Of a DNA stretch of 20,167 nucleotides, positions 3,235 to 19,815 are shown in pieces. The notes under the pieces are model-generated. The model worked only from the letters and a program-made list of their open reading frames with translations. It was not told where the DNA came from and ran no database searches. A program made the position numbers and the translations under genes. The DNA is taken from positions 1-20,167 of the forward strand of contig JBDRKI010000109.1 of assembly GCA_043814095.1 (NCBI GenBank). Reading direction: 5' to 3'. This stretch comes from Armatimonadota bacterium. Its GTDB lineage: Bacteria; Vulcanimicrobiota; JACPDS01; JBDRKI01. Numbering within the stretch: the stretch's first letter is position 1; every line of letters begins with the position of its first letter.

Positions 3235-3286
3235 ACTCTTGATTATCGTTTTTTTAAACCGGTAGTTAATTTTTAAAGGAGTAAAT

Positions 3287-4402: not shown

Positions 4403-4504
4403 GCTTTATAAATAATAAAATAAAAAAGGTTCAAATCCTTTCAGTGTAGAAATTTAAGATTATAAAAGGATACAAAACGTTTGGCTTTTGAAAGGAGATT
4501 TTAT

Positions 4505-5017
4505 ATGAGAGCTTTAAAAGTCGTCTCTGTTATACTGGTGATTATATTTCTGTTTACAGCGGTCTGTTTTGCTAAGAACAAAATTAAAGATTATGATTTC
4601 GGTGTGGGTATAGGCATACCTTACGGCGGTATCGGAGCCAATGTTGAGGTCGGCAGGGATTATGTCTTTACGGCAGGTCTCGGTGTTATGCCTTTTACCG
4701 ACGCGTCAACCAAAAATACCCAGATCGGCTGGTCAACAGGCTTAAGATATTATTTTAAAAAAGAACTTGCCCCTGGATTAAAATGGAGAGTAAGCGCTCT
4801 TTACGGCACGGTAGCTTATATTGAAAGAAATTATGCAAATAATGTAACCGGCGGTACTGTAAAAGAATATGAATTATTAACCGGTTTTGCCCCGGCCGTG
4901 GGTATAAGAGGCGAGAACTGGGATTTTGATATCGCGTATCCTCTGGGATATACGGTTCCCGAGGGAGTTATGGAGAGAGGCGGGAAAATAAAGCTTTCTT
5001 TTGGATTCAGGTTCTAG
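4505..5017 (+). CDS. Small exported protein, probable outer-membrane beta-barrel
   Basis: ATG 4505 follows an AAAGGAG RBS. Signal-peptide-like N-terminus (MRALKVVSVILVIIFLFTAVCFA), Gly/aromatic alternating strands (GVGIGIPYGGIGANVE, WSTGLRYYF) and a C-terminal beta-signal-like KLSFGFRF ending in Phe. Confidence 0.65.
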   Translation: MRALKVVSVILVIIFLFTAVCFAKNKIKDYDFGVGIGIPYGGIGANVEVGRDYVFTAGLGVMPFTDASTKNTQIGWSTGLRYYFKKELAPGLKWRVSALYGTVAYIERNYANNVTGGTVKEYELLTGFAPAVGIRGENWDFDIAYPLGYTVPEGVMERGGKIKLSFGFRF

Positions 5018-5052
5018 AATATATAATATGATGCGTAAGTTTTCTATTTAAC

Positions 5053-5100
5053 AGGGTCAAGTTTATGAAGTTAAAAGCTGAATTTCATAAGCCTGACCCT
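5053..5100. repeat. Intergenic inverted repeat (20-bp arms, 8-nt loop); terminator- or REP-like hairpin
   Basis: AGGGTCAAGTTTATGAAGTT (5053-5072) pairs with AATTTCATAAGCCTGACCCT (5081-5100): 17 Watson-Crick pairs, 2 G-U pairs and 1 mismatch. Confidence 0.75.
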
Positions 5101-5132
5101 AAATTATTAAAATATACATAAAGAGGGTTCTT

Positions 5133-5705
5133 ATGTCTAAAGAATTAAAAGCGGATTTAGTTGAACTTTACAAGCAACTTTGTTTGGAAACAAGAGAGAA
5201 ATACAATAGAGTGCTTCCTTTCTCTGAAGCCGTTGTAGACAGGTGGGAGAAAGCAAAATTGCTCGGATTCGGACAGAATACCAGCATTTATGATTCAAGC
5301 ATTGTAATAGGCGACGTGAAAGTCGGTGAGAATACCTGGATAGGTCCTTTTACCCTGCTTGACGGTTCGGGCCTTCTGGAAATAGGTTCATGGTGCAGCA
5401 TTTCTACCGGGGTGCAGATTGTAACCCATGATTCGGTAAAGTGGGCGCTGACAGGGGGAGTTGCGGGATATGAAAAATCTCCGGTTAAAATAGGAGATCG
5501 CTGTTATATAGGTTCTAACTCTATTATACTGAAAGGTGTTGTTATAGGGGATAATGTGGTTGTGGGCGCGAGCAGTATGGTTAATGATGATATACCTCCT
5601 TATTCCATAGCTGTCGGGACGCCCGCGAAAGTTATAGGGAAAGTTGTGATAGATAATGATAAAGTCAGATTTGAATACTTTAAAAAAAGAGAAAACGAAA
5701 AATAA
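5133..5705 (+). CDS. Hexapeptide-repeat acyltransferase (putative sugar O-acetyltransferase)
   Basis: Motifs VKVGENTWIGP, EIGSWCSISTGVQIVTHDS, IGDRCYIGSNSIILKGVVIGDNVVVGASSMV and AVGTPAKVI. Confidence 0.9.
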   Translation: MSKELKADLVELYKQLCLETREKYNRVLPFSEAVVDRWEKAKLLGFGQNTSIYDSSIVIGDVKVGENTWIGPFTLLDGSGLLEIGSWCSISTGVQIVTHDSVKWALTGGVAGYEKSPVKIGDRCYIGSNSIILKGVVIGDNVVVGASSMVNDDIPPYSIAVGTPAKVIGKVVIDNDKVRFEYFKKRENEK

Positions 5706-6759
5706 TTTAAGGGTCTTGTTCGGCCCTATTCATATAGCCGGTAATTTTTTAGGATATTCTCAGGGGCTTTCCTCTCTCGGAGTATCATCTAAAATTGTTT
5801 TAACTAAGAAGCATTCTTTTGAGTATAACGATAAAAATACAGAGTATCTCGGCAATAAAATAGATTTAAACAAAGTAAATTTAAAATTTGATAAAGGCAG
5901 GATAAGAGGCAGTTTTAATTTATCAAATTATAAGTTTCTTAAGTTTATAGATAAGTTTGATATATTTCATTTTACTTTCGGTCATTCGCTCCTGTCAGAG
6001 AACAGGGATATCCCCATTTTAAAATCAAAAGGCAAAAAAATTGTTATGCAGTTCTGCGGATGCGATATAAGGTGCAGGGATATAGTAACCTCTGAGAATA
6101 GGAAAGCAAGTCCCTGCACTGACTGCAGGATAGAATGCATTACCGCACAAAAGAGAGATACGGTTAAATTCTGGGAGACTCACGCAGATGCGATTATAAG
6201 CCATCCGGAGTATTCACAACTTCTTACAAAGCCTTATCACTATTTTATAATAGGTATAGATCCGGATAAATGGGATGAAGGGAAACTTCAGGAAAATTCT
6301 GTACCTTTAATAGTGCATGCTCCAAGCATGCAGGATGTAAAAGGGACAAAATATATAGTTGAGGCTGTTAACAGTCTTAAAAACGAAGGGTATGATTTTG
6401 AGTTTAAACTCCTTGAGAATATGCCCAATGATGAGCTTAAAACAATCCTTCAAAAAGCAGATATAGTTGTTGACCAGCTTTTATGCGGGTGGTACGGCCA
6501 TCTGGCCGTGGAATGTATGGCGCTCGGCAAGCCTGTTCTTGCTTATGTTGATGAAAAATGGTGCCGGCAGGTAGGTTATGCGGTAGAAGTTCCTATTATA
6601 AACACGACAAAAGATAATATATATGAAAACTTAAAGAAACTGATTAAAAACCCCGGATTAAGGAAAGATTGCGGGAGAAAGTCAAGAGAATACGTAGAAA
6701 AGGTTCATGATTACAGAAAGGTTGCAAAAGAGCTTTTAAATATTTACAGCAGTATTTAA
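5656..6759 (+). CDS. Glycosyltransferase family 4 (GT-B fold); start uncertain
   Basis: Motifs LIVHAPS...VKGT, ADIVVDQL and YGHLAVECMALGKPV, plus the C-terminal SREYVEKVHD helix. The ATG at 5656 overlaps the upstream gene by 50 nt. Confidence 0.85.
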   Translation: MIKSDLNTLKKEKTKNNLRVLFGPIHIAGNFLGYSQGLSSLGVSSKIVLTKKHSFEYNDKNTEYLGNKIDLNKVNLKFDKGRIRGSFNLSNYKFLKFIDKFDIFHFTFGHSLLSENRDIPILKSKGKKIVMQFCGCDIRCRDIVTSENRKASPCTDCRIECITAQKRDTVKFWETHADAIISHPEYSQLLTKPYHYFIIGIDPDKWDEGKLQENSVPLIVHAPSMQDVKGTKYIVEAVNSLKNEGYDFEFKLLENMPNDELKTILQKADIVVDQLLCGWYGHLAVECMALGKPVLAYVDEKWCRQVGYAVEVPIINTTKDNIYENLKKLIKNPGLRKDCGRKSREYVEKVHDYRKVAKELLNIYSSI

Positions 6760-6774
6760 GGCGATTAAATTAAT

Positions 6775-8049
6775 ATGAAAATACTTCTTCTTGTTACAAA
6801 TGACATAATAAATGACTCGCGGGTGAAAAGAGTTGCTTCAAGCCTTGCTTCGTTTGGTGCCGATCTAACCGTATTCGCCAGAAGAAGCGAGTATGCTCCT
6901 GATGAAGAAACTTGTGGAGGATACAGGATACGGCGCGTTATAGGGCCTTATTATAAAAAGAAAAGGAAAAAGAGTAATCTGGATAAAGTACCTGTTTTAA
7001 GCTGGTTCTTTGAGGCAAGGAAAAAGATTGATAAATACAAGATAAATATATCAGGTTTTAAAATAAAATTTAAGAAAATAAATGATAATGATTATAACGG
7101 CATGTTTGAGATAAATAAAGAAGCGGAGAAAAAACATATAGAAGAAGTTCTGGAGAATAATAAAATATTTGTCATGGAAGCGTTAAAGGTAAAACCGGAT
7201 GTTGTTTACTGCAACGATCTTGATACATTGATAAGCGGGGTTGAGCTTAAAAATAAGACAGGATGCAGGGTTATTTATGATGCGCATGAGCTTTTCAGCG
7301 AACAGTTTACGAATAAATCTGACGAGTGGAAAGAATATTTTTTTGAACTTGAAAAGACCTTGATAGGTTTTGCAGACGGGGTTATAACCGTTAACGAATC
7401 TATAGGGAAAGAGCTTGTAAAAAGGTATAATATAAAAGATTATACCGTTGTTGCAAACTGTGCAAGGTATAAAAGCATAAATCTTAGGCCTTCCAAAAAA
7501 GAAAAAACCATACTTTACCACGGCAGGTTTGAGATTAACCGGGGTATTGAAGAACTTGTGGAAGCGATGAGGTATATAGAGGGCGCCAAACTTATATTAA
7601 GGGGGGACGGCTTTATAAAAGACAGGCTTGCTGATATAATTAAAGAACATAAGCTAGATAAAAAAGTTATATTTAAAAACATGCTGCCAGTGGATAAGGT
7701 TATAGAAGAGTCCGCAAAAGCCGATATAGGCGTTATAGCGTATGTGCCGAACTGTTTAAATAATTATTTCTGTACGCCGAACAAACTGTTTGAATATATA
7801 ATGGCAGGTTTAGCTGTATGCGGCAGTGATCTGCCGGAGCTTAATAATTACATAATAGGCGGGGGTATAGGAGAAGTTTTTGATCCGCGTAAACCCCGCA
7901 GTATCGCAGACAGCATAAATAAGATACTGGGTAATGAAAATATTTTGAAAAGATGCAGGGATAATGTCCGAGTTCTTGCGAAAGAGAAAATTAACTGGGA
8001 GATCCAGGAGAAAAAGCTAAAAGAAATTTTAATGCTTGGTGATATATGA
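6775..8049 (+). CDS. Glycosyltransferase family 4
   Basis: Motifs DSRVKR, PDVVYCNDLDTL, IYDAHEL, YHGRFEINRGIE and PNKLFEYIMAGLAV. Confidence 0.92.
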   Translation: MKILLLVTNDIINDSRVKRVASSLASFGADLTVFARRSEYAPDEETCGGYRIRRVIGPYYKKKRKKSNLDKVPVLSWFFEARKKIDKYKINISGFKIKFKKINDNDYNGMFEINKEAEKKHIEEVLENNKIFVMEALKVKPDVVYCNDLDTLISGVELKNKTGCRVIYDAHELFSEQFTNKSDEWKEYFFELEKTLIGFADGVITVNESIGKELVKRYNIKDYTVVANCARYKSINLRPSKKEKTILYHGRFEINRGIEELVEAMRYIEGAKLILRGDGFIKDRLADIIKEHKLDKKVIFKNMLPVDKVIEESAKADIGVIAYVPNCLNNYFCTPNKLFEYIMAGLAVCGSDLPELNNYIIGGGIGEVFDPRKPRSIADSINKILGNENILKRCRDNVRVLAKEKINWEIQEKKLKEILMLGDI

Positions 8050-8939
8050 AAATAAGCGTTATTATATGTACATATAACAGAGCCGACCTTATAAAAGGGG
8101 CGGTTGAAACCCTTATAAATCAGGATTTAAAAAAGTGTGATTACGAGATAATAGTCGCTGATGACGGCTCAACCGACAATACTTCCGAAGAGGTGTGCTC
8201 AATAAGGACAGACGCGAACCTAAGGTATTTTAAAAGGCCTCACCAGAGCAGGTCCGCGGCAAGGAATTACGGCATAAATCAGGCAAACGGGGATTACATA
8301 CTTTTTGTTGATGATGATATTTTAGCCCCGCCTGATCTTTTAAACCAGCATTTAAAATATCTTGAGAGAGGCGGGAAAATAGTCGTAAGGGGACCGGTTG
8401 TAAATACCCCTTATTATGACCTTGAAAAAAACAGCAAAGCGAATATCCAAGATTTTTCAATGGCATTTTTCTGCACCTGCAACGCTTCGGTGGACAGGCA
8501 GGTTCTGCTGGATATAGGCGGTTTTGACGAAAATTTCACCGAATACGGCTGGGAGGACACAGAGATCGGCCTCAGGATGCGCAACCGTGGCTATAAAGTA
8601 AAATTTAACATGGACGCGGTTATTTACCATTATAAACCTAAAAGCGCGGATGATCTTGGGGAATATATACAGAAAGCCGAAGAACTGGGCAGGACAGCGG
8701 TTGAATTTTATAAAAAACATCCCAGTTTAAGGGTAAGCATGGCTACGGGGATTAACCCTATACACAGGATCTGGCAGGGTGTCGCATCAAATTACTTTAT
8801 AAAGAATCTTGCCGTAAATCTTATAAAAAACGAAAAAATAGCAAGCAACAAAAACTTATCATATTTTTTAAAAAGCAGGATTTTTAATTATTATTATCAT
8901 AAAAGCATAGGTGATAAATTAAAAGGCAAAAAATCTTAG
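8046..8939 (+). CDS. Glycosyltransferase family 2
   Basis: Motifs ISVIICTYNR, ADDGSTD, ARNYGI, LFVDDD and GGFDENFTEYGWEDTE. ATGA overlap with the upstream gene. Confidence 0.93.
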   Translation: MKISVIICTYNRADLIKGAVETLINQDLKKCDYEIIVADDGSTDNTSEEVCSIRTDANLRYFKRPHQSRSAARNYGINQANGDYILFVDDDILAPPDLLNQHLKYLERGGKIVVRGPVVNTPYYDLEKNSKANIQDFSMAFFCTCNASVDRQVLLDIGGFDENFTEYGWEDTEIGLRMRNRGYKVKFNMDAVIYHYKPKSADDLGEYIQKAEELGRTAVEFYKKHPSLRVSMATGINPIHRIWQGVASNYFIKNLAVNLIKNEKIASNKNLSYFLKSRIFNYYYHKSIGDKLKGKKS

Positions 8940-8963
8940 AAAATAAAAAGCAAGGGTGAGATT

Positions 8964-9854
8964 ATGGATATTTCAATACAAATATGCTCGTATAACAGGA
9001 AGAATGTTCTTGAGAAATGTTTAAGAGCTCTGTGCAACTTAAATTATGACAGGGACAAGTTTGAACTTGTGCTTGTTGATGACGGATCGGTTGACGGGAC
9101 AGGGGAGCTTGTGAAAAATCTTAATATGCCTATAAAGCATAAATATATTTATCAGGAAAACCAGGGTCTGGCTACTGCCAGGAATAAGGGCATACGCGCC
9201 GCGGAAGGAAAATACATATTATTTATTGATGATGATATAATAGCGGATAAAGAACTTCTTAATGAGCATATAAAGTTCCATGAAAAATATATGAGAAGCG
9301 TGGTTAAAGGCTGGGTTAACCATGTAGATGACCTGGATAATATAACAAAGCCCAAATTTACCTGGGCGGATTTTTCAACCGCTTTTTTCTGGACTTCAAA
9401 TGTGTCGGTTGAACGCAAGTTTTTGCTCCAGTCCGGGCTTTTTGACGAGGAGTTCCGCGAATACGGCTGGGAGGATTTAGAGCTGGGCTTGAGGCTCCGC
9501 AAGCTGGGTTTAAGTTCAAGATTTAACAAAGATGCGGTAGTTTACCATTATAAAGGTATGTGGAATAAAGAGCGCCTTGAGAGAAGCATTAAGGTATCAC
9601 AGGCAAAAGGAAGAACAGCCGTTTTATTCTGCAAAAAACATCCGGGGGCCAGGGTGAAAATTGCTACCGGAAATTATTTTTTAAGAAAATTTTTAAATAC
9701 GGTATTATACTGTGCCGGCTCGGGCGAGAAGCTCTGTAATGGCCTTCTTGAGAAGAGAAATTCCGGAAAATATACATCGTTTGATATATTCCTTGCTAAA
9801 AGATTAATTGATTTTGAATATTTCAGGGCTATGTCAGGGGAAGAAAAAAAGTAG
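8964..9854 (+). CDS. Glycosyltransferase family 2 (paralog of 8046-8939)
   Basis: Motifs ISIQICSYNR, VDDGSVD, ARNKGI, LFIDDD, FFWTSNVSV and GLFDEEFREYGWEDLELG. Confidence 0.93.
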   Translation: MDISIQICSYNRKNVLEKCLRALCNLNYDRDKFELVLVDDGSVDGTGELVKNLNMPIKHKYIYQENQGLATARNKGIRAAEGKYILFIDDDIIADKELLNEHIKFHEKYMRSVVKGWVNHVDDLDNITKPKFTWADFSTAFFWTSNVSVERKFLLQSGLFDEEFREYGWEDLELGLRLRKLGLSSRFNKDAVVYHYKGMWNKERLERSIKVSQAKGRTAVLFCKKHPGARVKIATGNYFLRKFLNTVLYCAGSGEKLCNGLLEKRNSGKYTSFDIFLAKRLIDFEYFRAMSGEEKK

Positions 9855-9875
9855 AAAACAGAGAGTAAAGATATA

Positions 9876-10895
9876 ATGGAAAAGAAAGAACATAATTTTA
9901 AAAATATAGTCATAATTAACACAGGGGCTTTAGGAGATAATCTTTTATCAACTCCTTTAATTGAAGCGCTTTACACGCAGAACCCCGGTTGTTTTCTAAG
10001 CCTTGTAACATCAAGGCCCGGTTATGATGCATTAAAAACCAATCCCTGTATAAAAGACTTCTTTATAATTGACTATGATAAATCTTCATTTGCCGACAAA
10101 ATAAAGTTGGGTGCGGACCTAAAAGCTTTAAATCCGGAACTGGCCGTGAATTTAACCGAGAAAATATGGGGATATATATGGGCATTTTTATCAGGGGCTC
10201 CCGTAAGGGCCGGATTTATCCCCGGGATGAGCCAGCCCGTGAAATCTATGCTTGTATCCCCCTTGATTAACCGTAAGGTATACTTCCATAATGATTTGAA
10301 TGAAAAAAGTACGATGCACGAAGTGGAAAGGCATTTCCTAATTTTAAAAGCGCTGGGCATTGAAAAAGAGCCGGGAAAGTTAAAGATAAGCATTCTGGGA
10401 AACTTTAAACATGATTTTAAGGGCGCCTCTGTAGTGCATTTAACACGGAAATGGTTCAGCTCCGGCTGGGACGAGGAAGATTTTATTGACCTTATTAAAC
10501 ATGTTTCGCAGGTTCTTTCAAATACCCCTGTTATAGTATCATACGGGACCCTTGAAAAAGACTGGGCAGGTGATATTATAAAAAGGGTTGAATACATTAA
10601 CGGGGTAAAAGCTTACTATATAGGGGATATTATAGAGTTTGCCGGAATTCTAAAGGACGCAGGCGTAGTTATATCGCCTGATACGGGGATAATACACCTT
10701 GCGAGTGCTTCAGGCGCGCCTGTTGTGGATATTTTTGAGGAAAAATATTTTGAACACAATTCGAACCGCTGGTATCCCTGGAAAACAAAATATATTTTAA
10801 TTAAAAGAGAAGAAAAAAAAGAAGATAAAAATAAAGAAGAGTTTTTTGAAGATATTGTTGATTCAATGAGGGAGTTACAATGTTTATTAGTGTAG
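9876..10895 (+). CDS. Glycosyltransferase family 9 (ADP-heptose:LPS heptosyltransferase-like)
   Basis: Motifs GALGDNLLSTPLI, HEVER, ISPDTGIIHLASASGAPVV and RWYPW. Confidence 0.9.
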   Translation: MEKKEHNFKNIVIINTGALGDNLLSTPLIEALYTQNPGCFLSLVTSRPGYDALKTNPCIKDFFIIDYDKSSFADKIKLGADLKALNPELAVNLTEKIWGYIWAFLSGAPVRAGFIPGMSQPVKSMLVSPLINRKVYFHNDLNEKSTMHEVERHFLILKALGIEKEPGKLKISILGNFKHDFKGASVVHLTRKWFSSGWDEEDFIDLIKHVSQVLSNTPVIVSYGTLEKDWAGDIIKRVEYINGVKAYYIGDIIEFAGILKDAGVVISPDTGIIHLASASGAPVVDIFEEKYFEHNSNRWYPWKTKYILIKREEKKEDKNKEEFFEDIVDSMRELQCLLV

Positions 10896-12835
10896 TAGTG
10901 CCGACATATAACAGGGCGGATACATTAAAATATGTTCTGCCGTCGCTGGCCGGCCAGAGTTATCCGAACGATAAATATGAAATTATTTTATGCGACAGCG
11001 GTTCAACCGACGAAACCAAACAGCTGCTCAAAGAGCTGTCTATACCGAACTTAAGACATATTACTGTAGAGAACAGGGGTAGGGCATATGCAAGAAACGC
11101 CGGCATAAGTCATGCCCAAGGCGATATTATTTTATTCACTGATGCCGATATTATAGCGGACAAGAACCTTATTTATGAACACGCAAGGATGCATCAAAAG
11201 CACCCCGACCTGGCTGTCGTGGGGTGCGAGGTACAGGTAAACTCAATTGATGAAATTACCGGCATCATAAACGGGGTTAAGGAATTAAAGCCCATACATC
11301 CTTCACGAAAACGCCATCTTCCGTGGTATTTCTTTCTTACTGGCAACGCTTCGGTATCAAAAGAAAGCCTTCTTGTTGTAGGGCCTTTTGATGAAGATTT
11401 TAAAGGCTACGGCCATGAAGATCTGGAGCTCGGGTACCGTCTGTCCCGCATGAAGTATCATATAGTATATAATCCCAAAGCGGTAAATTATCATCTACAC
11501 CCGGTTTCTTTTGAAGAAAAGTGCGGAAAGATGTACCAGTCGGGGAAAGCAACGGTTAAATTCTATAATAAGCACCATGATTTTGATATTAAGCTGAAAC
11601 TGGGATATACGCCTGTTTCCACTATTATTCATTCTTTGATATCGCCTAAAGGCAAATTTTTTCAATACTGCAGGAAGAATAACGAGAAAAGCAGTCTGTG
11701 CAGGGAAATAATATTACAGCATTACTACATTACAGGCATAAAAGACGCTTTAAAAGGCCGGACAAAAGATATTGATACCATACAGGATAAAGGCGAGATA
11801 GAGAAAGAGAAAGTCAACAAGATACTTGTTATAAGGATAGATCATCTGGGTGATGTAATATGCTCGCTCCCGTTTATAAAATCTCTTCAGGATAACTTTT
11901 TCAACGCGCAGGTGGATGTGATTGTTTCATCAGGCACCCAGCAGGCTTTGTATAAAGCTTCTTTTATACATGAACTTATGGTATATAATCCCGGTTATTC
12001 CAAAAAAGAAGTGGCCGGTTTAGTAAACTTCCTTAAAAACAGAAAATACGATATAGCAATAGCCCTGTCGCCTACTTCGGCATCATATTACCTGGCATAT
12101 AAATCAAAAGCAAAAAGAAGGTTCGGCTGGGTATATATAAACAGGCCGGTAACTGCTTTCGCTACAAAATTCGCGCTTACCGATCCCCTTTATATGAATT
12201 ATGAAAAGCTTTTGAAAAAAGGTGAAAAAATACCCCATGAAGTTGAACAGACTCTGGATTTGGCGGAGAAGATGGGCGTAAAAATAAGTGATGACAAATT
12301 ATTTATTGATATATCGGAAGATGAAAGACTGCATAATATAAAACAGCTGGAGCTGCTTAAATACAGTAAATGCATAGGGCTTCACCTGTCACATAAATGG
12401 TTCAGCACCGATTTCTTAGACAGAGATTTTACAACCTTTGTGGAAAAACTGCTTGATCATTTCAGGGATTATACTTTAATAATAACCGCGGGCCCCGAAG
12501 AAGTTGATTATGTAGATATATTTAAAGACAGGATAAAAAGCGGCAGGATTCTGTTTTTAAAAGAACTTCCCTTTAAGGTCTGGGCTTCTGTTTTAAGCTA
12601 CTGCAGGTTTGTAATAACGATGGATACCGGCGCAACCCATGTGGCAGCCGCGGCCGGAGTGTCTGTAGCGTGTGTGTTTGAAGATGGGAAATACGATAAA
12701 TGCTCCCAGCAGTGGTATCCCTGGGGAGTTAAAAGCTTATTATATAAAAAAAGAGATATAAAGCAGTTAAAAGAAGAAGATTTTAAGAAAATGGAATATC
12801 TTACCAAAGACGAAGAAGTAGAAGCAAGAAGATAA
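10880..12835 (+). CDS. Bifunctional GT2-GT9 fusion glycosyltransferase
   Basis: The N-terminal half is GT2 (ISVVVPTYNR, CDSGSTD, LFTDAD, FFLTGNASV, YGHEDLELG). The C-terminal half is GT9 (ILVIRIDHLGDV, PHEVEQ, TMDTGATHVAAAAG, QWYPW). GAGGGAG RBS upstream. Confidence 0.92.
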   Translation: MFISVVVPTYNRADTLKYVLPSLAGQSYPNDKYEIILCDSGSTDETKQLLKELSIPNLRHITVENRGRAYARNAGISHAQGDIILFTDADIIADKNLIYEHARMHQKHPDLAVVGCEVQVNSIDEITGIINGVKELKPIHPSRKRHLPWYFFLTGNASVSKESLLVVGPFDEDFKGYGHEDLELGYRLSRMKYHIVYNPKAVNYHLHPVSFEEKCGKMYQSGKATVKFYNKHHDFDIKLKLGYTPVSTIIHSLISPKGKFFQYCRKNNEKSSLCREIILQHYYITGIKDALKGRTKDIDTIQDKGEIEKEKVNKILVIRIDHLGDVICSLPFIKSLQDNFFNAQVDVIVSSGTQQALYKASFIHELMVYNPGYSKKEVAGLVNFLKNRKYDIAIALSPTSASYYLAYKSKAKRRFGWVYINRPVTAFATKFALTDPLYMNYEKLLKKGEKIPHEVEQTLDLAEKMGVKISDDKLFIDISEDERLHNIKQLELLKYSKCIGLHLSHKWFSTDFLDRDFTTFVEKLLDHFRDYTLIITAGPEEVDYVDIFKDRIKSGRILFLKELPFKVWASVLSYCRFVITMDTGATHVAAAAGVSVACVFEDGKYDKCSQQWYPWGVKSLLYKKRDIKQLKEEDFKKMEYLTKDEEVEARR

Positions 12836-12837: not shown

Positions 12838-12864
12838 AAAGCCGCCTGGGTCTCAGGCGGCTTT
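12838..12864. terminator. Bidirectional rho-independent terminator between the convergent blocks
   Basis: AAAGCCGCCTG-GGTCT-CAGGCGGCTTT forms a perfect 11-bp stem with A-rich and T-rich flanks, immediately after the stop at 12835. Confidence 0.88.
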
Positions 12865-12907: not shown

Positions 12908-13996
12908 TTAGATTCCTTCCATCTGCGGGCCTTCTGTTGCGGCAAAAGTGGATGCCTGCGGCTGGAGCCTGCCGTATCCCGCGATTTTACTGGAGTGTAT
13001 TTCATTTGTGTTCTGCAGGGTAACTCCTCCGTGTGAGGGTGATGCGGCAAGCATTGTGTTTTTATCAACATAAATCGCTACATGCGTAACCCTTTTATAA
13101 GCTATGCCTGACTGATAAGAAGTATTTTTAAAGAATATTAAGTCGCCCGGTTTGGGATCTTTAACCAGGGTCATATTATTTTTGCCTTGTTCGGCGTGCA
13201 TATACTGTATGTCCGCTAATCTTGTGGAAGGGTCAGCTTTAAAGGAATTGCTGATGGCTTCCGAGCCTATGAGGGCTCTTCTTGTAAGCATTGCGCAGTC
13301 AGTCGTGTATTCTCCGTCTCCGCCGAGGTGGTAGGGTTTGCCCAGATCGCATAACGCGGTATAGAGTATTTTTCCGGATACCGTTTTCTCCGGATGGTAC
13401 TGGTCGCTTTTTACAGGGTCAAATTTCCAGAAAGTGCCGTCTTTTACTCCCGTTATAAGTTTGGAAGTCTGCAGATCAATCTGGTTTCCGCTGGGTTCAA
13501 TACCGTATATTGACTGGAATAAAGCAACCGCCTTGGCTGTTCTTTGGTTATATACGCCGTTCACCTGTATAAATCTTCTCATTTTAGGATGCCATTTAAT
13601 AAGCATCTTCTGGAGATCTTTTACCTCTTTGCCGGTTGATCCCAGCTTTAAATTATGAAATTGATTTGCTTTTTCCGAGTCAACTTTCTCTATTTTCTGC
13701 GTGCTTTCGGTGCTTTTTGATTCATCAAGAGGCTGTATTTTTATAACTTGAGGCTTAAAGTCTCCGGTTTGTTCATAAATCTTCTGCGCCTGCATGGCTA
13801 TATACTGGTCAAGTTTTTCAGTCTCGGTAAGCGGGGTAGGCATGTTCTGGGGGGTTGTTTTTTCAATATATTGCTGAAGCTGGTCCGAAAATGCAAGCAT
13901 ATCCGGTTTGGGCTCTGCCTGTTTTCTGAAAAACGGCTGGGCTTCATCCGGTATTTTATTCTGTTTTATTGGTGAAAAATCCATCGGATTTGTCAT
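12908..13996 (-). CDS. NlpC/P60 (C40) peptidoglycan endopeptidase with a PG-binding-like domain
   Basis: PG-binding-like segment LKLGSTGKEVKDLQKML...NGVYNQRTAKAVALFQSIYGI. C40 motifs LGKPYHLGG, TDCAMLT, PKPGDLIFF and THVAIY. No hydrophobic signal peptide. Confidence 0.88.
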   Translation of the reverse strand: MTNPMDFSPIKQNKIPDEAQPFFRKQAEPKPDMLAFSDQLQQYIEKTTPQNMPTPLTETEKLDQYIAMQAQKIYEQTGDFKPQVIKIQPLDESKSTESTQKIEKVDSEKANQFHNLKLGSTGKEVKDLQKMLIKWHPKMRRFIQVNGVYNQRTAKAVALFQSIYGIEPSGNQIDLQTSKLITGVKDGTFWKFDPVKSDQYHPEKTVSGKILYTALCDLGKPYHLGGDGEYTTDCAMLTRRALIGSEAISNSFKADPSTRLADIQYMHAEQGKNNMTLVKDPKPGDLIFFKNTSYQSGIAYKRVTHVAIYVDKNTMLAASPSHGGVTLQNTNEIHSSKIAGYGRLQPQASTFAATEGPQMEGI

Positions 13997-14115
13997 ATCA
14001 ATTCACCGCTTTCTGTTACGTAATGCGGATGGTGTTAGTTCCATCCAATTTAATTATAGGGTATTTATGCCTCTTTTAATATCCTCCATATGGAGTATTT
14101 TAAAAGCCCTTATTT

Positions 14116-15306
14116 TTAAGGATTTCTTCCTAAATATAGGTGCATATGGTCTCCGGTTTTGTTTTTACTGTCATAAATATATTCATTGTAGCATCCGAAC
14201 TGGCCGTAAAGCTTGTTCTCTTTTATGAAATTATTTATTAAATAAACAACTTTTTTGGACTCTTCACCTGATATATGTCCTTTTCTTGTATAAATCTGGC
14301 AGTCAATGGCATGTCCTATGCTGTGCTTTGAACCTTTATCATTGGACCTTAGACCGCTTGTCAGTATTACAGAGTATCCGTAAGTGTTAAGATAAGCCGC
14401 AAGGGAAGTAAAAATACCTGTAAGCTTTGTGCTTACCCCTATTAAAAGGTAAGTATTTCTTACAAAAGAACCCAGCCTGGAAGCCATCTGTCTTCTTCTT
14501 CTTTTATTTTTTATAAGGGCGTAAGTTTTTGATATGCCGTTTTTACACAGTAGAGCATAAGTTTCTTTCTTAAGAGAAGTGTTAAGCGGATATTTTTTTA
14601 AACTTGCTGTTCCGTTTAAAATGTCATTGAAAACAGCAAGATCTTTATTCGTTATTTCATTACCCTTGGAAGGAAGGCCGAATCTGTACTTAAAAAGCTG
14701 TAAAGCTGTGTATGTTTTTTGATCAAATATATCGCTTTTTTCATCTAATTTTTCATCACACGGCAGCCATTTATTAATGCTATTTTTTATAAATTTTGTA
14801 TATTTTGAAGAGTATCCGATATTATAAGTTTTACATATGGGAAATTTTTCTTTACCTTTTTTGGTATTTACTAAAAAAGTAATTCCTTCTTTAATAGTAT
14901 GGCCGTCTTTCAAATAGTCATATAAAAATTTACCTTCCGTATAATTTTCATATTTTTCAAGATCAGCTATTTTTGCGGGATTTGTAAAAAGTTCTTTAAC
15001 TTCAGGTGTTATTTCACCGGTAAAAGCAATATCATGACATCTTGCAAATATTTTTATCGTATTGAACATATTTGCGTCATAGATACCCGTTTTAAATATT
15101 TGTTCCGCAGGATTTTCTTTATAATAAGGCAGATTATCTGTCATCCATTTGGATAAAAACTTCTGAATAGCTGTTATCTGCTCTTTTGACAGGTTTTCTT
15201 TTATACTGCCGCACGGCAGTGTAACTATAGTTGCCCCGGTTTTAACAGAACTTATAACCCGGTTAGTTATTAAATTGTATGTTTCTCCTGATTGATTAAT
15301 AAACAT
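14116..15306 (-). CDS. M15-type Zn metallopeptidase (cell-wall peptidase) with two divergent PG-binding-like modules
   Basis: C-terminal ILTSGLRS, SKHSIGHAID (SxHxxGxAxD) and DHMH (HxH). The start is placed at ATG 15306: AGGAG lies 5 nt upstream, and the N-terminus MFIN matches the paralog's MYIN. Confidence 0.85.
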   Translation of the reverse strand: MFINQSGETYNLITNRVISSVKTGATIVTLPCGSIKENLSKEQITAIQKFLSKWMTDNLPYYKENPAEQIFKTGIYDANMFNTIKIFARCHDIAFTGEITPEVKELFTNPAKIADLEKYENYTEGKFLYDYLKDGHTIKEGITFLVNTKKGKEKFPICKTYNIGYSSKYTKFIKNSINKWLPCDEKLDEKSDIFDQKTYTALQLFKYRFGLPSKGNEITNKDLAVFNDILNGTASLKKYPLNTSLKKETYALLCKNGISKTYALIKNKRRRRQMASRLGSFVRNTYLLIGVSTKLTGIFTSLAAYLNTYGYSVILTSGLRSNDKGSKHSIGHAIDCQIYTRKGHISGEESKKVVYLINNFIKENKLYGQFGCYNEYIYDSKNKTGDHMHLYLGRNP

Positions 15307-15335
15307 ATACACTCCTGTATTCTCCCTCTATATAT

Positions 15336-15405
15336 ATTATAGTGTATGTTTATCCGATAAATATTAACAAAAAGTTAACAAAATGTTAACATTTTGTTAA
15401 CTTTT
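15336..15405 (-). promoter_or_regulatory. Promoter with TATAAT -10 and four 11-bp-phased (G/A)TTAAC boxes (OmpR-family/WalR-like)
   Basis: ATTATA at 15336-15341 reads TATAAT on the - strand. Hexamers lie at 15363, 15374, 15385 and 15396. 15370-15405 is a perfect 36-bp palindrome. The array is nearly duplicated at 18341-18385. Confidence 0.75.
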
Positions 15406-15470
15406 AATGGCAAAAAATAGCTCAAAGCAAGGTTTTTATTAATAAGCCGGTATATTTAAAGCTTTTATTC

Positions 15471-16913
15471 TTAAAGTTCTTTTGATTCCAGCAATTGTAT
15501 ATCTCCATCCGGCATTATTTTATATCTTTCAATTGTTTCTTTTTCAACGGTTATTTTGGTCTCAAGCTGACCTATTTTAGTGCCGTCTGGCCGGAACCAG
15601 TCTGTTTTAAGATATTTTTTAACATATTTTGCGTACTCAGTGCCGTTTGTAAAAGGCACCCTGTGGAAAGATGTGAATGTCCAGTAATCGCCTTTTTCCT
15701 GGTTTCCGTGATTGTCTGTCTGACCGGCAAAACTCATCCCTTTGATTTCTTCCGCAAATTGATGTTTGCTTTCAGGTATATTGTCTTCTATAGCCATGAC
15801 ATCTTTATAGTAAGGAGAAGTTGTATTTATCTTAACTCCATGCAGCACTTTTATATTAGGATCTGTTAAGGGCTCTTTCTCTATTTTTATTTCTTTGCTC
15901 TTTATTTCCGTTTTTTCTACAGGAGCTTTCTCCTCGCTTTTTTCCGGTTTCGCAATATTATTTTTAATCCATTTTATTGTTAATTTTAAAGGTCCGTCTT
16001 TACTTAATTTTTCAAGCAAACCGAATATCATATTTTTGTCTTCTATTTTTGCTTTATTGCCTATAGCAACCAATATTTCCGCGATACCTTTTCTGGCATT
16101 ATCGTTTCCCTGTATTTTTTCATTCCCAAGCAGGTTTAAAAGGTTGCCGAAGACACTTGTTCCTAATCCAGTTATTGTATTTATTGTGTCTTTACGCACT
16201 TCATCTGATTTATTCATCAAGAAGAAAATTTTATTAGCTGATTTAGTAAGAACATATAATTGAGGTCTTTTTTGAGTATTTGTTAAAAGCGATACAAGTT
16301 CTGCATCTTCAGCTTTTTTGGCTTCTTCAGCCTTCTTAGCTTCTTCAGCTTTCTTGGCATCTTCAGCTTTCTTGGCTTCTTCAGCTTTCTTAGCTTCTTC
16401 AGCTTTCTTAGCTTCTTCAGCTTTCTTAGCTTCTTCAGCTTTTTTGGCATCTTCAGCTTTCTTGGCATCTTCAGCTTTCTTGGCATCTTCAGCCTTCTTA
16501 GCTTCTTCAGCTTTCTTAGCTTCTTTTAATTTAGCTTTAGCGTCATCTATTTTATCCAGCTTTATTTCCCTTAATATTTTTATTCCAACTCTCAGTTTAC
16601 TTATTTCATCCGCGTTCTTATTAATTACTGCCGTTCTTTCATCAAAGGAAATATTCTTATTGTTCTGAGCTGTTTTTATAAGGACATATCTGTCATATAT
16701 TTCTTTTTGAAGCCTTAAGAAAAGTTTTTCTCCCGCTACTTTATTATTGTATCTGTCCAGGAAATTTAAAAGCAGAGTTTTGATGGAGTCTTCCTTTATT
16801 ATGGTGTTTACCATCAAACTGTTTATAAGGGTGTCTGCCGCGCTTTTAACCCTTTTGTTCTTAAACTCTTCATAAATAAAATTGCCGTATCCTACTCCCG
16901 GTAATTCTTTCAT
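15471..16913 (-). CDS. Hypothetical protein with central AE(E/D)AKK repeats; helical N-terminal and middle regions
   Basis: 480-aa ORF with a strong GAGGAGG RBS, starting 12 nt after the stop of 16926-18278 (probable operon). No recognisable catalytic motif or signal peptide. Confidence 0.8.
   Translation of the reverse strand: MKELPGVGYGNFIYEEFKNKRVKSAADTLINSLMVNTIIKEDSIKTLLLNFLDRYNNKVAGEKLFLRLQKEIYDRYVLIKTAQNNKNISFDERTAVINKNADEISKLRVGIKILREIKLDKIDDAKAKLKEAKKAEEAKKAEDAKKAEDAKKAEDAKKAEEAKKAEEAKKAEEAKKAEEAKKAEDAKKAEEAKKAEEAKKAEDAELVSLLTNTQKRPQLYVLTKSANKIFFLMNKSDEVRKDTINTITGLGTSVFGNLLNLLGNEKIQGNDNARKGIAEILVAIGNKAKIEDKNMIFGLLEKLSKDGPLKLTIKWIKNNIAKPEKSEEKAPVEKTEIKSKEIKIEKEPLTDPNIKVLHGVKINTTSPYYKDVMAIEDNIPESKHQFAEEIKGMSFAGQTDNHGNQEKGDYWTFTSFHRVPFTNGTEYAKYVKKYLKTDWFRPDGTKIGQLETKITVEKETIERYKIMPDGDIQLLESKEL
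16302..16523 (-). repeat. 18-bp coding tandem repeat, about 12 units encoding AE(E/D)AKK
   Basis: The + strand unit is approximately TTCAGCTTTCTTAGCTTC. It encodes 11 complete AE[ED]AKK hexapeptides plus partial units at each end (74 aa). Confidence 0.95.
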
Positions 16914-16925
16914 AATTGCCTCCTC

Positions 16926-18278
16926 TTATATATTTATATGGAAATGATCGCCGGTAGTTGATTTAAATTTTACGATATACTCATTGTAATATGTAAAACT
17001 TCTACCGGTCTGATTCCTGAACTGCTCAATTATCTGAGCTACAACTTTAGATTCCGCCTTTGCTATATATGCGCCGTTTTTACGCACTACAAAATCTATT
17101 GCTCTTCCCGTGCAGTGAGTGGAATCATAATCATACGGCCTTCTCCCGCTGGTTATTATAAGATCATAACCGTATTGATTTAAAACAGAGTATAATTCAG
17201 AAAACAGGTCAGCTGTTTCTTCTTTAATTTTAATTTTGGAACATATATCTGCCCGGGTTACTGTTCCGCGATACATACTGCAGCTGCAGGGTATCTGCCA
17301 GTTATATATATTGCCGTTATAGGTTGAAGTATATGCGGGGTATAATCTTCCCCTGCTCGCAAGCATTGCTCTTTTAAGCGAATATTTTTTTCTTCCCGGT
17401 ATCAGGCTTATTTTCTTATATGCTTTGGCGGGACCGTATTTACAGATTGTTTCATATACCAGTTTCTGCCACCTGTCTTCAAATTCATATTCGGGCTTCT
17501 TTTCAGGGTCTAGATTATCGCATAATATGTCGGTAAAAATTTCAAGATGCCGTTCAGTTATAACATTGGAATTGCAGTGCAGCCCGAATCTTTGATTGAA
17601 AAGTTCAAGAGCGGCTATTGTGGCTTTATCAAATTTATTTGTTTTATCAAGTTCCGCGCCTTTATGGGGCATTTTGCTCATCCAGTCTTTTAAGTAATGC
17701 TTTATTAAGTCAACATAATCCGATTCTTCGCCAAGTTTATATGTTTTGCAGATAGGATGCTTTGAGTTATTAAGATTGGAAATGAGGCTTAATCCCTCAT
17801 CTATTCCCTTGCTGCATACCGCTCTGTATAATATTGCGCCCTGGGCTGATTTTAATCTATAGGGGGAATCTTTTTTATCAAAACTACCCGCTGCTATTTT
17901 TTTAAATGCGGTTAGATGTTCTTCTGTGAGTCTTTCGCCGTCAAAGTTTATATCGTAGCAGGTTGAAAAAACATCCAGGAATTTTAAGGTATTATCGCCG
18001 TATTTAAAAGGGAGTCCGAACATCGCGTAGATTGAGGATGATTCTACCTCAGGGTCGGCAACAGATGCGCCGATTAAATTTTTATAATAGGGGGTTTTGC
18101 TTACCCATCTGTATAAAATTTTATGTATGGTGTAAATTTCTTTAGAATTGTAATTTTTAAGCCTTTTTGGCGACAGAGCGCTGGCTTCAGCAATTAAAGG
18201 ATATTTACTGAAGATCCCGTTTATTACCCGCTTTATTATTGAATTTTTTCCCGTTGCCGGGAACGAGTTAATATACAT
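16926..18278 (-). CDS. M15-type Zn metallopeptidase with two divergent PG-binding-like modules (paralog of 14116-15306)
   Basis: C-terminal IITSGRR, STHCTGRAID and DHFH. It shares PICKTY, LNxYGY, YNEYI and TGDHxH with the paralog. Confidence 0.85.
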   Translation of the reverse strand: MYINSFPATGKNSIIKRVINGIFSKYPLIAEASALSPKRLKNYNSKEIYTIHKILYRWVSKTPYYKNLIGASVADPEVESSSIYAMFGLPFKYGDNTLKFLDVFSTCYDINFDGERLTEEHLTAFKKIAAGSFDKKDSPYRLKSAQGAILYRAVCSKGIDEGLSLISNLNNSKHPICKTYKLGEESDYVDLIKHYLKDWMSKMPHKGAELDKTNKFDKATIAALELFNQRFGLHCNSNVITERHLEIFTDILCDNLDPEKKPEYEFEDRWQKLVYETICKYGPAKAYKKISLIPGRKKYSLKRAMLASRGRLYPAYTSTYNGNIYNWQIPCSCSMYRGTVTRADICSKIKIKEETADLFSELYSVLNQYGYDLIITSGRRPYDYDSTHCTGRAIDFVVRKNGAYIAKAESKVVAQIIEQFRNQTGRSFTYYNEYIVKFKSTTGDHFHINI

Positions 18279-18315
18279 CTTTACACCTTATAAGTATAGA
18301 TCTACTTATATTTAT

Positions 18316-18385
18316 ATTATAATATACAAAGGTTCGAAAGATATTAACAAAAAGTTAACAAGTTGTTAACTTTTTGTTAACTTTT
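18316..18385 (-). promoter_or_regulatory. Second copy of the TATAAT + 4x (G/A)TTAAC phased-box promoter
   Basis: ATTATA at 18316-18321 and hexamers at 18343, 18354, 18365 and 18376. The offset from the -10 to the first box is 27 nt, the same as in the 15336 copy. Confidence 0.75.
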
Positions 18386-18420
18386 ATTAAATATCTTATC
18401 AATGAACATCTTTTTATAAT

Positions 18421-19815
18421 TTACATAAAATCATTGTAAGCTTTAAGTACGTTCGCAACATAGTATTTAGTTTCAAGGGGGAGCTCCATTTTGTCGTATT
18501 TTTTGTGTTTTTTGAATTCCTGTTCCACTTCTGTAGGCCCCCTGTTGTATGCCGCAATGGCCAGCTTTAAGTTGCCGTTGAACCTGTCCAGCATTTTTCT
18601 TAAGTATTTTGAACCGCACATAATATTGGTTTCTATGTCAAAAATTTCACCGCTTTCATATTCTTCAAGATAACCGATGTCTTCTGCCGCTATTTTTGTT
18701 ACCTGCATAAAGCCGCAGGCATCCTGACCGGACACCTCTTTATGTCCGAAACTGGATTCTACGGATATTACGGCTATAATAAGGCCGGGAGGGAGGCTGT
18801 AAAGGGTACTTGCTTTTAAGACAGCCATGAAAAACTCATCAGTGTTAAACCCGTTTTCTCCGGCAGCTTTAAGAATCTGTTCTTTGAAGGGCTTTAATCT
18901 GGAAAACATATCGGCAAGAGTGAAAAACTTTTTTGTTTTCAACTGCAGTTTCTGTTTTGTCGCTTTTTTCTTCCCTGTGAATATAAGCATACCTTTATGC
19001 AGCCCGTGTTTTTCAAGCATTCTGTAAAGCCGGGATTTTTCATAAGAAAGATCTTTCCATGATTTTACAAAAGCGTTAATATGGGCTTTTGTAATGGTAT
19101 GGTTGTCGGAAGTTCTAATTTTCATTAATTTTGAGAATGCCTTTAATGCCATGAGCATATCGGAATCAAAAATATCATTTACTTTTATCTGCGCTTTATC
19201 TGGCAGCCATATATTTAATATGGTTTTTATGGCGGGTATTTCATCGTATTTATCGCCCTGTCGGTATTTTCTTGGAATATCCAGCGTTTCCAAATATCCT
19301 GTCAATCCCATGTCAACTGTTTTTATACCCTGTTCCATTAATATTTTGGGCGCTTTAATTGAAACAAAGATATGGTTTTTATTAGTCTTTTCAAAAGCTT
19401 TTAATCCTTTATGCAGGCCGTGTTTACAGATTAATTGATAAAGTTTTTTTCCGTCTGTTTTTTTATTCTTGTATTTCTTTTTTCGGAAGAAAGAAAGATC
19501 CTGTAAATCTTTAAGTGCTTGAATATGTTCTTGTGTGATTTCATCCATGGCAAACTGTTTTATATTATATATTATTGAAAACGCTTTTAACGCGGCTGAG
19601 GCATCGGCATCAAAATTCTGGTTTGCGGTAAGCTTTGAGCCCGGTGGCAGCCACTTATTCATCAGAATTTTTAAAGCCGTTATTGTTTCGGATTTTTCGC
19701 CGGTTTCAAACCGTAAGGGTTTTAAATTTTGCAGCATAACGCGCATTCTGTCCGGAAGAATAATCCGTCCGCCGGCCTGCCGGCTTTTTTGAATATTGAT
19801 TGATTCATTTTCCAT
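18421..19815 (-). CDS. Lytic transglycosylase (SLT family) with two tandem divergent PG-binding-like modules
   Basis: SLT motifs AVISVESSF (catalytic Glu), ACGFMQV, NIMCGSKYL, AIAAYNRGP and ETKYYVANV. Internal repeat WLP...FD.D...ALKAFS...IT..HI...LY....KHGLHKG. GGAG RBS. Confidence 0.9.
   Translation of the reverse strand: MENESINIQKSRQAGGRIILPDRMRVMLQNLKPLRFETGEKSETITALKILMNKWLPPGSKLTANQNFDADASAALKAFSIIYNIKQFAMDEITQEHIQALKDLQDLSFFRKKKYKNKKTDGKKLYQLICKHGLHKGLKAFEKTNKNHIFVSIKAPKILMEQGIKTVDMGLTGYLETLDIPRKYRQGDKYDEIPAIKTILNIWLPDKAQIKVNDIFDSDMLMALKAFSKLMKIRTSDNHTITKAHINAFVKSWKDLSYEKSRLYRMLEKHGLHKGMLIFTGKKKATKQKLQLKTKKFFTLADMFSRLKPFKEQILKAAGENGFNTDEFFMAVLKASTLYSLPPGLIIAVISVESSFGHKEVSGQDACGFMQVTKIAAEDIGYLEEYESGEIFDIETNIMCGSKYLRKMLDRFNGNLKLAIAAYNRGPTEVEQEFKKHKKYDKMELPLETKYYVANVLKAYNDFM

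Follow-up and report, generated by a model that had tools for sequence, protein, structure and literature searches.

A cluster of four modular murein hydrolases predicted to lack export signals in a genome of the Eremiobacterota/Vulcanimicrobiota clade

The stretch of DNA analysed here, referred to as the window, is an entire contig of 20,167 bp (C109) from the assembly of an Armatimonadota bacterium (2.5 Mb, 129 contigs, 39% GC, 99% complete). This host genome is called G000 and its contigs carry C-numbers; G001 is the sole other genome in its order. On the minus strand, between positions 12908 and 19815, the window carries five co-oriented open reading frames (ORFs), A to E, of which four (A, B, D and E) encode murein hydrolases and one (C) is an orphan. 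Judging from the sequences, the locus is a lineage-specific chromosomal set of four intact modular enzymes, each predicted to combine N-terminal binding repeats with a C-terminal catalytic domain, and their three chemistries together could take a sacculus apart. E, an SLT lytic transglycosylase, would by its family cut glycan strands. D and B, which match L-Ala-D-Glu endopeptidases and LD/DD-carboxypeptidases most closely in structure, would hydrolyse a bond of the stem peptide, and A, by its family, would cut a second stem-peptide bond, typically the gamma-D-Glu-diamino acid one. Our preference, a tentative one, is that the locus is a bacteriolytic kit that would be exported in a single step bypassing the producer's periplasm and would lyse the exposed peptidoglycan of other cells.

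The catalytic domains of E and A were recognised by Pfam. The SLT domain of E scored 82.8 bits with PF01464 (cut-off 21.3, E-value 1.7e-23). Enzymes of this family have a catalytic glutamate in an E-S motif together with GLMQ-like and AYNAG-like motifs, and in E the motifs VESSF (residues 352-356), GFMQ (368-371) and AYNRG (422-426) are present. Two PG_binding_1-like repeats precede this domain. The top NCBIfam match of E was the flagellar assembly lytic transglycosylase model, over the domain only and at 67.5 bits against a cut-off of 234, and a word-based homolog search with residues 1-320 returned only E itself. A begins with a conserved N-terminal region of no recognised type, which is followed by a PG_binding_1 domain (27.8 bits, cut-off 23) and an NlpC/P60 domain (PF00877, 51.5 bits, cut-off 23). 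The NlpC/P60 enzymes use a catalytic cysteine, then a histidine and then a third polar residue, and the candidates in A, assigned by eye on the sequence alone, are Cys234 in TDCAM, His305 in THVAIY and His322 in SPSHGG. PADLOC gave no match for A-E, and the NCBIfam matches were at the domain level and far under their cut-offs.

B and D align over their whole length (BLASTP, 30% identity across 454 alignment columns, E 4e-43), and neither reached the cut-off of a Pfam M15 family (B, 14.4 bits with M15_4 against 25; D, 16 bits with M15_3 against 23.2). D contains the motifs STHCTGRAID (386-395), NEY and GDHFH (443-447) and B contains SKHSIGHAID (328-337), NEY and GDHMH (387-391), giving the common pattern S-x-H-x-x-G-x-A-x-D, NEY, G-D-H-x-H. 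In an alignment of 11 LAS domains, taken from the window, G000, G001, one metagenome relative and five other genomes of the phylum, the residues H, G, A, D, NEY, G, H and H were invariant. A profile built from these domains was compared with the PDB, and of the 28 sequences matched the 25 best were Hedgehog N-domains, with a best E-value of 3.9e-5; the full-length profile of the two sequences B and D gave no PDB match.

The AlphaFold model of full-length D (pLDDT 75) matched Ply500, ChiX, LysB4, Hedgehog-N and LdcB in Foldseek with a probability of 0.85-0.99 (0.97-0.99 for Ply500, ChiX and LysB4), and VIA aligned it with LAS peptidases at Z 6-7.7, among them VldE-C, the T5 L-Ala-D-Glu peptidase and Ply500 at Z 6.5-7.7. 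When the catalytic domain was modelled by itself (pLDDT 79, pTM 0.75), the top Foldseek rows were ChiX, Ply500, LysECD7, ShhN, EndoT5 and LdcB (probability 0.75-0.98). B and D are taken to be M15-type because the motifs, the profile matches to Hedgehog-N, the full-length model and the domain model agree, and they are predicted to be divergent members of the LAS/Hedgehog-DD-peptidase superfamily that fall in no single Pfam M15 family. A word-based homolog search with D found only D itself. The original prediction had named co-oriented genes for an SLT enzyme, two M15-type peptidases and an NlpC/P60 peptidase, thus three chemistries; this was borne out by Pfam for E and A, and by the motifs, the profile and the models for B and D.

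The N-terminal part of these proteins, which we call the chassis, is shared. In BLASTP the N-terminal halves of E, D and B were homologous (E-values 1.4e-10 to 4.7e-6), and one unit each of D, B and E matched the PG_binding_1 region of A (3e-6 to 2e-4). With the Pfam model PF01471, B scored 20.1 bits, under the cut-off of 23, and D and E gave no match. Residues 142-259 of the D model superposed in VIA on SleC, a C. difficile PG-binding protein, SleB-N, CtpB, 1LBU-N and gp144-N with Z values of 7.2-8.0, a range that the tool's own note calls common for helical models. The chassis thus appears, from sequence and model together, to be made of one or two divergent PG_binding_1-like repeats, doubled in B, D and E, in agreement with the common N-terminal region that had been proposed.

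Between the chassis and the catalytic domain a junction of the form basic-x-x-(L/M)-A-S-R-x-G lies in a disordered linker (B 274-281, D 302-310, alignment columns 340-360). It reads M-A-S-R-L-G in B and M-L-A-S-R-G in D, where the linker is modelled with pLDDT below 50. The junction is kept with an M15-like or an NlpC/P60 head alike, in all 10 relatives that carry the chassis except P0011, which has a gap there. This x-L-A-S-R-x-G element might be processed, might autoinhibit the enzyme or might mark a point of recombination.

When 1.84 billion representatives were searched exhaustively with the profile of B and D in HMMER, 35 proteins came up at E <= 1e-3. Besides B and D themselves, these comprise 10 (P0003-P0012) with the chassis and 23 that match over the catalytic domain only, beginning at about profile position 319. 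With so few relatives, the chassis family counts as very rare. Seven of the 10 chassis relatives carry an M15-like head, for which one gave a weak M15_3 match and six gave none, and the other three (P0008, P0011 and P0012) carry NlpC/P60 at 86-114 bits instead. All except one of the 10 come from short metagenome contigs. When 401 genomes of the phylum were searched, a count that includes four unpublished genomes used for it alone (G177, G212, G275 and G391), 139 had a match, and among the matches listed, which were all but 35, the chassis was reached only in G000 and by one match in G001 (profile position 240). The G001 locus (L012:4582-6563, G001:C165) has a 257-aa gene with a binding repeat and a LAS domain and, just upstream, a 169-aa repeat ORF; the two are possibly one split gene. 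The LAS gene there stands back-to-back with an SLT gene that does carry a signal peptide.

Paralogs and synteny were to be looked for according to the original prediction, and both were found. By tblastn, G000 has eight SLT, M15-like and NlpC/P60 genes, and four of these fall within 7 kb of the 2.5 Mb genome, a clustering far beyond chance. The order SLT, M15, NlpC/P60 is kept in the metagenome loci L116/L117 (GC 39-40%), where a 260-aa SLT protein without signal or chassis, a chassis and LAS protein (P0010) and a 360-aa ortholog of A are flanked by Maf, PfkB, formiminotransferase-cyclodeaminase (FTCD), a C39-like peptidase and TldD/PmbA. No phage genes flank the locus in the window or in L116/L117. 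The order is conserved amid housekeeping genes in this relative, and the core trio therefore appears to be ancestral and chromosomal, and not prophage-borne.

The genes of the trio have diverged unequally. The ortholog of A in L116 (NLPC_P60, 50 bits), directly after the M15 gene, is 71% identical to A, whereas identity is only 30% between P0010 and D, 32% between P0010 and B, and 33% between the SLT domains of the relative and of E. A further search of genome contigs with P0010 found nothing. The GC content at third codon positions (GC3) is 0.27 in B and 0.30 in C, against 0.35-0.45 in neighbouring genes. On the sequences, the second LAS gene and C seem to have been added in G000, where E also seems to have gained its chassis. 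The M15 and SLT genes would have turned over quickly by duplication, by swapping at the x-L-A-S-R-x-G junction and by replacement, and the NlpC/P60 gene would have stayed stable through this turnover. The interchangeable C-terminal enzymes envisaged originally are seen in the three chassis relatives with NlpC/P60 in place of M15, and divergence between relatives is unequal (71% identity for A, about 30% for the M15 proteins).

We examined the N-termini for export signals. Each of the ORFs A-E starts at the first ATG, GTG or TTG after the upstream stop codon, and therefore cannot be extended any further at its N-terminus. Over the first 40 residues, the highest Kyte-Doolittle mean of a 10-residue stretch was 0.12 to 1.53 in A-E and -0.13 to 1.61 in the ten chassis relatives, against 2.65 to 3.73 in signal-bearing paralogs (the SLT protein on C99, the NlpC/P60 protein on C111 and the G001 SLT protein). 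No 19-residue window in A-E reached the transmembrane (TM) level (maximum 1.56), and no twin-arginine or lipobox pattern was visible. A-E are accordingly predicted to have no Sec, Tat or lipoprotein signal, as had been stated from the first inspection.

Holins and secretion machinery were searched for in the window and in the genome. There are 60 small ORFs with at least two TM segments in G000, and none of the 60 is on C109. No holin or spanin gene was found beside the hydrolases among the window ORFs, a search that did not extend to single-TM holins or to DNA past the contig end. Genome-wide, the holin search covered the LrgA family, which had no match in G000. VirB4, TssC, a contractile phage sheath and Spo0A had no match each in this 99%-complete genome (the type VII system was outside the search), and in the searches for these four and for LrgA the control genomes responded as expected. 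A link to sporulation was considered and rejected, as Spo0A was not found. The locus has no immunity gene: the gaps of 119-158 nt are too small for one and the sole extra gene is C. The original statement that the window has no recognisable holin, phage or secretion gene held, since 11 of the 12 flanking ORFs are sugar or glycosyltransferase genes and no small multi-TM ORF is present. The search for export systems suggested at the same time gave a flagellar export gate, a type II secretion system and type IV pili; the type IV and type VI systems and the sheath were not found.

The host looks like a deep-branching, diderm, flagellated member of the Eremiobacterota. In an rpoB tree G000 formed a long branch by itself inside an Eremiobacterota/Vulcanimicrobiota clade of 16 rows (SH-like support 99), and GTDB lists one other genome in its order. 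Diderm markers include GT9 heptosyltransferases, MlaE and a LolA-like protein, and the genome has four secretin matches in four ORFs, a type II secretion system and a type IV pilus machine. On C60 (L125:1865-13370) tandem secretin genes of 866 aa (with AMIN/STN domains) and 492 aa are preceded by pilM/pilN and a prepilin peptidase gene and followed by genes for two giant TPR proteins of 1247 and 1147 aa. A flagellar cluster on C54 contains a complete export gate and rod/hook genes, with a 192-aa signal-less SLT gene embedded between fliJ and fliK. Of exporters that work without a signal, only the flagellar type III apparatus was identified in G000; a TolC-dependent type I route is also possible, the TolC family being represented by 12 half-domain matches in six open frames.

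The genome also encodes a soluble protein with the FlhA cytoplasmic domain (C4:6190-7566, minus strand; 458 aa, FHIPEP positions 322-653) and a 422-aa fusion of FlhB-C (positions 244-335) with FlhA-C (positions 455-654) at C67:7431-8699 on the minus strand; both genes sit amid housekeeping genes. FHIPEP was found in all 41 genomes of the phylum searched (G000 and 40 relatives), many of which had 2 to 18 matches, and most of the extra matches span only model positions of about 300 to 656. FlhA-C domains seem to have expanded across the phylum.

A phylum-wide family of signal-less LAS/Hedgehog-like proteins of about 185 aa was observed as well, with a conserved N-terminal helix (NRIQxIQ) and an SF(D/E)xML motif; members are listed in Table 1. 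In G034 (L005:856-1767) the ORF over the LAS match begins, by eye, with a hydrophobic, signal-like N-terminus. When a hidden Markov model (HMM) of the N-terminal module of this family was built with the G000 sequences left out, it found the C23 peptidase at 1.3e-7 and placed the flagellar SLT protein at rank 3 of 2554 with an E-value of 0.12; the resemblance of the N-terminus of the flagellar SLT to the short LAS family is a weak sequence lead. We also considered a flagellar-type N-terminus common to A-E and rejected it, as an HMM of the short LAS proteins and the flagellar SLT matched none of them. The Pfam Rod_binding domain had no match in A-E.

In architecture the enzymes resemble gp144 of phage phiKZ (KZ144, PDB 3BKH) and the endolysin of Burkholderia phage AP3 (PDB 5NM7), which have an N-terminal PG_binding_1 domain, a C-terminal enzyme and no signal; the catalytic domain of gp144 is a lytic transglycosylase, as in E. 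The binding domains of gp144 and AP3 superpose on residues 172-267 of D with Z 7.2 and 6.9. Unlike these endolysins, the locus comprises four chromosomal genes covering three chemistries, its surroundings are not those of a phage, and no holin or spanin was found there. Its binding repeat is doubled and so divergent that only that of A is over the Pfam cut-off, and the gene order is kept amid housekeeping genes in a relative.

B and D are also similar to the zinc D-Ala-D-Ala carboxypeptidase of S. albus G (M15A, 1LBU), in which PG_binding_1 is followed by a Hedgehog/DD-peptidase domain; the binding domain of 1LBU matches D at Z 7.5, and the zinc motif H-x6-D and H-x-H is present in B and D. 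The 1LBU enzyme is secreted with a signal and a propeptide. In contrast to it and to the Hedgehog-like DD-peptidases, B and D are signal-less, have two repeats and a conserved disordered junction, and are too divergent for Pfam M15. The bacterial Hedgehog-like DD-peptidase domain is predicted to be periplasmic according to Roelink 2018 (PMC6027127). Another similar enzyme is the chromosomal LAS/M15 peptidase ChiX, the L-Ala-D-Glu endopeptidase of the S. marcescens ChiWXYZ system (PDB 5OPZ), which Foldseek placed first for the catalytic domain of D (probability 0.98, E 7e-3, TM 0.46/0.42). Two papers on Serratia describe this endopeptidase as the working partner of the holin ChiW (PMC4259817, PMC5778951). 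ChiX has a single domain and lies beside a holin and spanins that serve chitinase export, whereas our locus has binding repeats and three further hydrolases, with no holin, spanin or cargo found.

Effectors of the type VI system (Tae/Tge) and the Xanthomonas type IV effectors (X-Tfe) have no Sec signal, cover several wall chemistries, diversify fast and have modular C-termini, as the enzymes here do. They come with periplasmic immunity genes, a type VI or type IV system and a recognition domain; here an immunity gene fits no gap of the locus, and VirB4, TssC and a sheath were not found in G000. The polymorphic-effector logic put forward originally is therefore only partly upheld. The locus shows a variable head on a constant region, and neither an immunity gene nor a trafficking domain or secretion system of this kind was found; moreover, the chassis is a peptidoglycan-binding repeat, so module swapping is ordinary for lysins and autolysins and not specific to polymorphic effectors. 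The alternative offered with it originally, a wall-remodelling programme, may still hold. FlgJ-type flagellar hydrolases are likewise signal-less wall enzymes of flagellated cells, and G000 has one such SLT in its flagellar cluster; the cassette differs from them in lying outside that cluster, in having no rod-binding-like N-terminus, and in being multi-enzyme and fast-evolving. We found no description of such a cluster in this phylum in the main text of open-access articles.

In the export reading that we tentatively favour, the enzymes would be made in the cytoplasm, where they would be harmless, and would leave the diderm producer in one step, so that its own periplasm is bypassed. Outside, they would bind and lyse the exposed peptidoglycan of monoderms, damaged cells or debris, and the outer membrane of the producer would shield its own wall. 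This shielding would account for the missing immunity genes, and avoidance of the periplasm for the missing signal peptides; the several chemistries and the fast gene turnover fit this reading. A number of observations weigh against it. Nothing ties A-E to the flagellar apparatus and the export route is inferred. The HMM of the N-terminal module of the short LAS family, run against the genome at E <= 10, had no match to A-E, and run against A-E alone it gave 1.8 bits for E and -0.6 bits for A. No effector trafficking domain was found in A-E in Pfam, NCBIfam or PADLOC. The combination of binding and catalytic domains without a signal is also the build of endolysins that act on the producer's wall. 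Upstream of E only 352 nt of the contig remain, with a promoter-like site and no notable ORF, and a neighbouring holin or exporter gene could thus be missed. Finally, the domain-only fold matches of D are moderate (E >= 7e-3, TM 0.42-0.50), while pointing to one consistent family, and the Z values of 6-8 for full-length D lie in a range that VIA calls common. It is unlikely, in our view, that the locus is an immunity-free bacteriolytic arsenal of polymorphic hydrolases, with heads swapped at the x-L-A-S-R-x-G junction on a private chassis, which the flagellar type III gate or some route not yet described would release in one step and for which the FlhA-C paralogs could act as extra docks; if it were, diderms would have a means of using wall-lytic weapons that is new.

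Nearly as likely as the export reading, and fitting the architecture best, is an endolysin-like set that would act on the producer's own wall, reaching the periplasm through a holin-like lesion or another Sec-independent path. It could open the wall locally, or serve a programmed lysis that frees DNA, vesicles or cargo, as Serratia does in its holin/endopeptidase secretion. The build matches that of modular Gram-negative endolysins, as the superpositions of gp144 and AP3 over the binding domain indicate, the best structural match of the LAS domain is ChiX, a holin partner, and retention in the cytoplasm would also explain why immunity genes are missing; separate promoter regions precede B, D and E. 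Against this, the window contains no holin, spanin or cargo gene and the genome no LrgA (an incomplete screen, holins being too diverse), and no phage gene lies beside the locus here or in the relative. Moreover, one lysin suffices for lysis, yet four diversified ones are kept, and for housekeeping autolysis it would be unusual that the M15 and SLT genes have diverged so much faster than A.

Two further explanations are less probable than these. Quite improbably, the enzymes would open the wall for the assembly of the flagellum, type IV pili or the type II secretion system and be exported through the flagellar type III gate like FlgJ. All three machines are encoded in the genome, a signal-less SLT gene lies between fliJ and fliK, the short signal-less LAS peptidase (C23) is found across the phylum, and E has the flagellar transglycosylase model as its top, domain-only NCBIfam match. 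However, the cassette does not lie beside machine genes either here, where its neighbours are lipopolysaccharide genes, or in the relative; the flagellar cluster already has its own SLT, A-E are without the N-terminal module of the short LAS family, and rapid turnover with duplication is not expected of assembly factors. The least probable explanation is a decaying remnant of prophage or tailocin lysis genes or of a virion lysin, with no current cellular function. It is suggested by PHROGs matches to tail lysins and endolysins (E, phrog_2013, 1.9e-22; A, phrog_329, 5.8e-13), by the low GC3 of B and C, and by a LAS domain in G024 (L008:1498-2862) in a neighbourhood that seems phage-tail-like, judged from N-terminal sequences alone. 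The PHROGs matches span the catalytic domains only, however, the five ORFs are intact with their catalytic motifs kept, the gene order is conserved amid housekeeping genes in the relative, and there is no phage structural gene in the window and no contractile sheath gene in the genome.

Table 1. Positions of the genes, predicted domains and other features; coordinates refer to the window unless a contig or locus is given.
Feature	Position	Strand	Description
Gene A	12908-13996	-	362 aa, PG_binding_1 + NlpC/P60; N-terminal region, residues 1-115
A, NlpC/P60	12995-13342	-	residues 219-334
A, PG_binding_1	13484-13636	-	residues 121-171
Gene B	14116-15312	-	398 aa from GTG (396 aa from ATG two codons downstream), LAS/M15; two PG-binding-like repeats
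B, LAS/M15 domain	14119-14466	-	residues 283-398
Gene C	15471-16913	-	480 aa, orphan repeat protein between D and B
C, KAEEAK/KAEDAK repeat	16306-16525	-	18-bp unit, 12.2 copies, central
Gene D	16926-18278	-	450 aa, LAS/M15, paralog of B; PG-binding-like helical repeats at about residues 38-135 and 173-291
D, LAS/M15 zinc peptidase	16929-17273	-	residues 336-450
D, disordered linker	17274-17393	-	residues 296-335
Gene E	18421-19815	-	464 aa, SLT lytic transglycosylase
E, SLT domain	18487-18822	-	residues 332-443
E, second PG_binding_1-like repeat	18952-19278	-	residues 180-288
E, first PG_binding_1-like repeat	19399-19710	-	residues 36-139
Hairpin	12838-12864		bidirectional GC-rich terminator; 12 and 11 pairs, 7 G-C, T-rich tail on each strand
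GTTAAC array	18344-18380		three units at 11-bp spacing, upstream of D
GTTAAC array	15370-15405		three units at 11-bp spacing, twin, upstream of B
Short LAS protein, G000	C23:55561-56109 (= L112:7562-8110)	+	~185-aa family
Short LAS protein	L013:6820-7377	-	~185-aa family
Short LAS protein	L003:1495-2079	-	~185-aa family
Short LAS protein	L009:1489-2061	-	~185-aa family

The gaps between consecutive genes from A to E are 119, 158, 12 and 142 nt. The orphan gene C starts 12 nt past the stop codon of D, behind GAGGAGG. No family reached its cut-off for C in the Pfam, PHROGs and NCBIfam scans, and the hydropathy gave no signal peptide. A homolog search with C returned 197 matches, all through the Lys/Ala/Glu repeat and with a BLAST coverage of <=45%, mostly <25%. 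The Atlas search with residues 206-480 had a best score of 0.77 with TM <=0.31, within the chance range, and an ORF lying at one end of contig C7 is similar to the first 115 aa of C. Among sequencing runs no RNA run was listed as containing the sequence. In a DNA run from a groundwater metagenome 0.07 of the words were found; a few contigs of 150-180 nt were identical to parts of B and E, and C was matched only through unrelated repeats.

Positions 1-12835 hold 12 plus-strand ORFs, 11 of which are sugar-nucleotide or glycosyltransferase genes (including GT9 heptosyltransferase-type domains) and one of which has no family. The hairpin listed in Table 1 separates gene A from the convergent glycosyltransferase gene. 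At the contig start, a UDP-glucose/GDP-mannose dehydrogenase gene (3-1463, plus strand) contains an intein, placed between the central and C-terminal domains (Pfam Intein_splicing, residues 195-326, 6e-12).

The GTTAAC arrays upstream of D and B were considered as locus-specific operators. This was rejected because they are copies of a genome-wide intergenic repeat, with the same 11-bp-spaced arrays on 59 contigs of G000. The search gave 94 adjacent GTTAAC pairs, and the figure of 59 contigs was counted from its rows. These intergenic arrays consist of 2-5 units of TGTTAACAnnn at exactly 11-bp spacing, and in many cases a TATAAT-like box follows 15-30 bp downstream. The total number of GTTAAC sites in G000 is not raised (750 against about 817 expected), and the clustering is the signal. 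The clustered sites may be -35-like or UP-like promoter elements, or sites of a global regulator.

Wall hydrolases endanger the cell that makes them, and their export or control is usually visible as a signal peptide, a holin, an immunity gene or a secretion system. At this locus four intact enzymes of three chemistries show none of these signs, yet their arrangement is conserved in a relative. Whichever reading holds, Pfam in its current form misses two families, the divergent Hedgehog-like LAS domain and the doubled binding repeat. If the enzymes act on the producer's own wall, they would point to a holin-independent mechanism of autolysis. If one-step export is true, the locus would represent a new route for bacteriolytic proteins in a phylum of which hardly any member is in culture, and endolysin-like enzymes that already bear wall-binding modules of the Gram-negative type could also be drawn from it.

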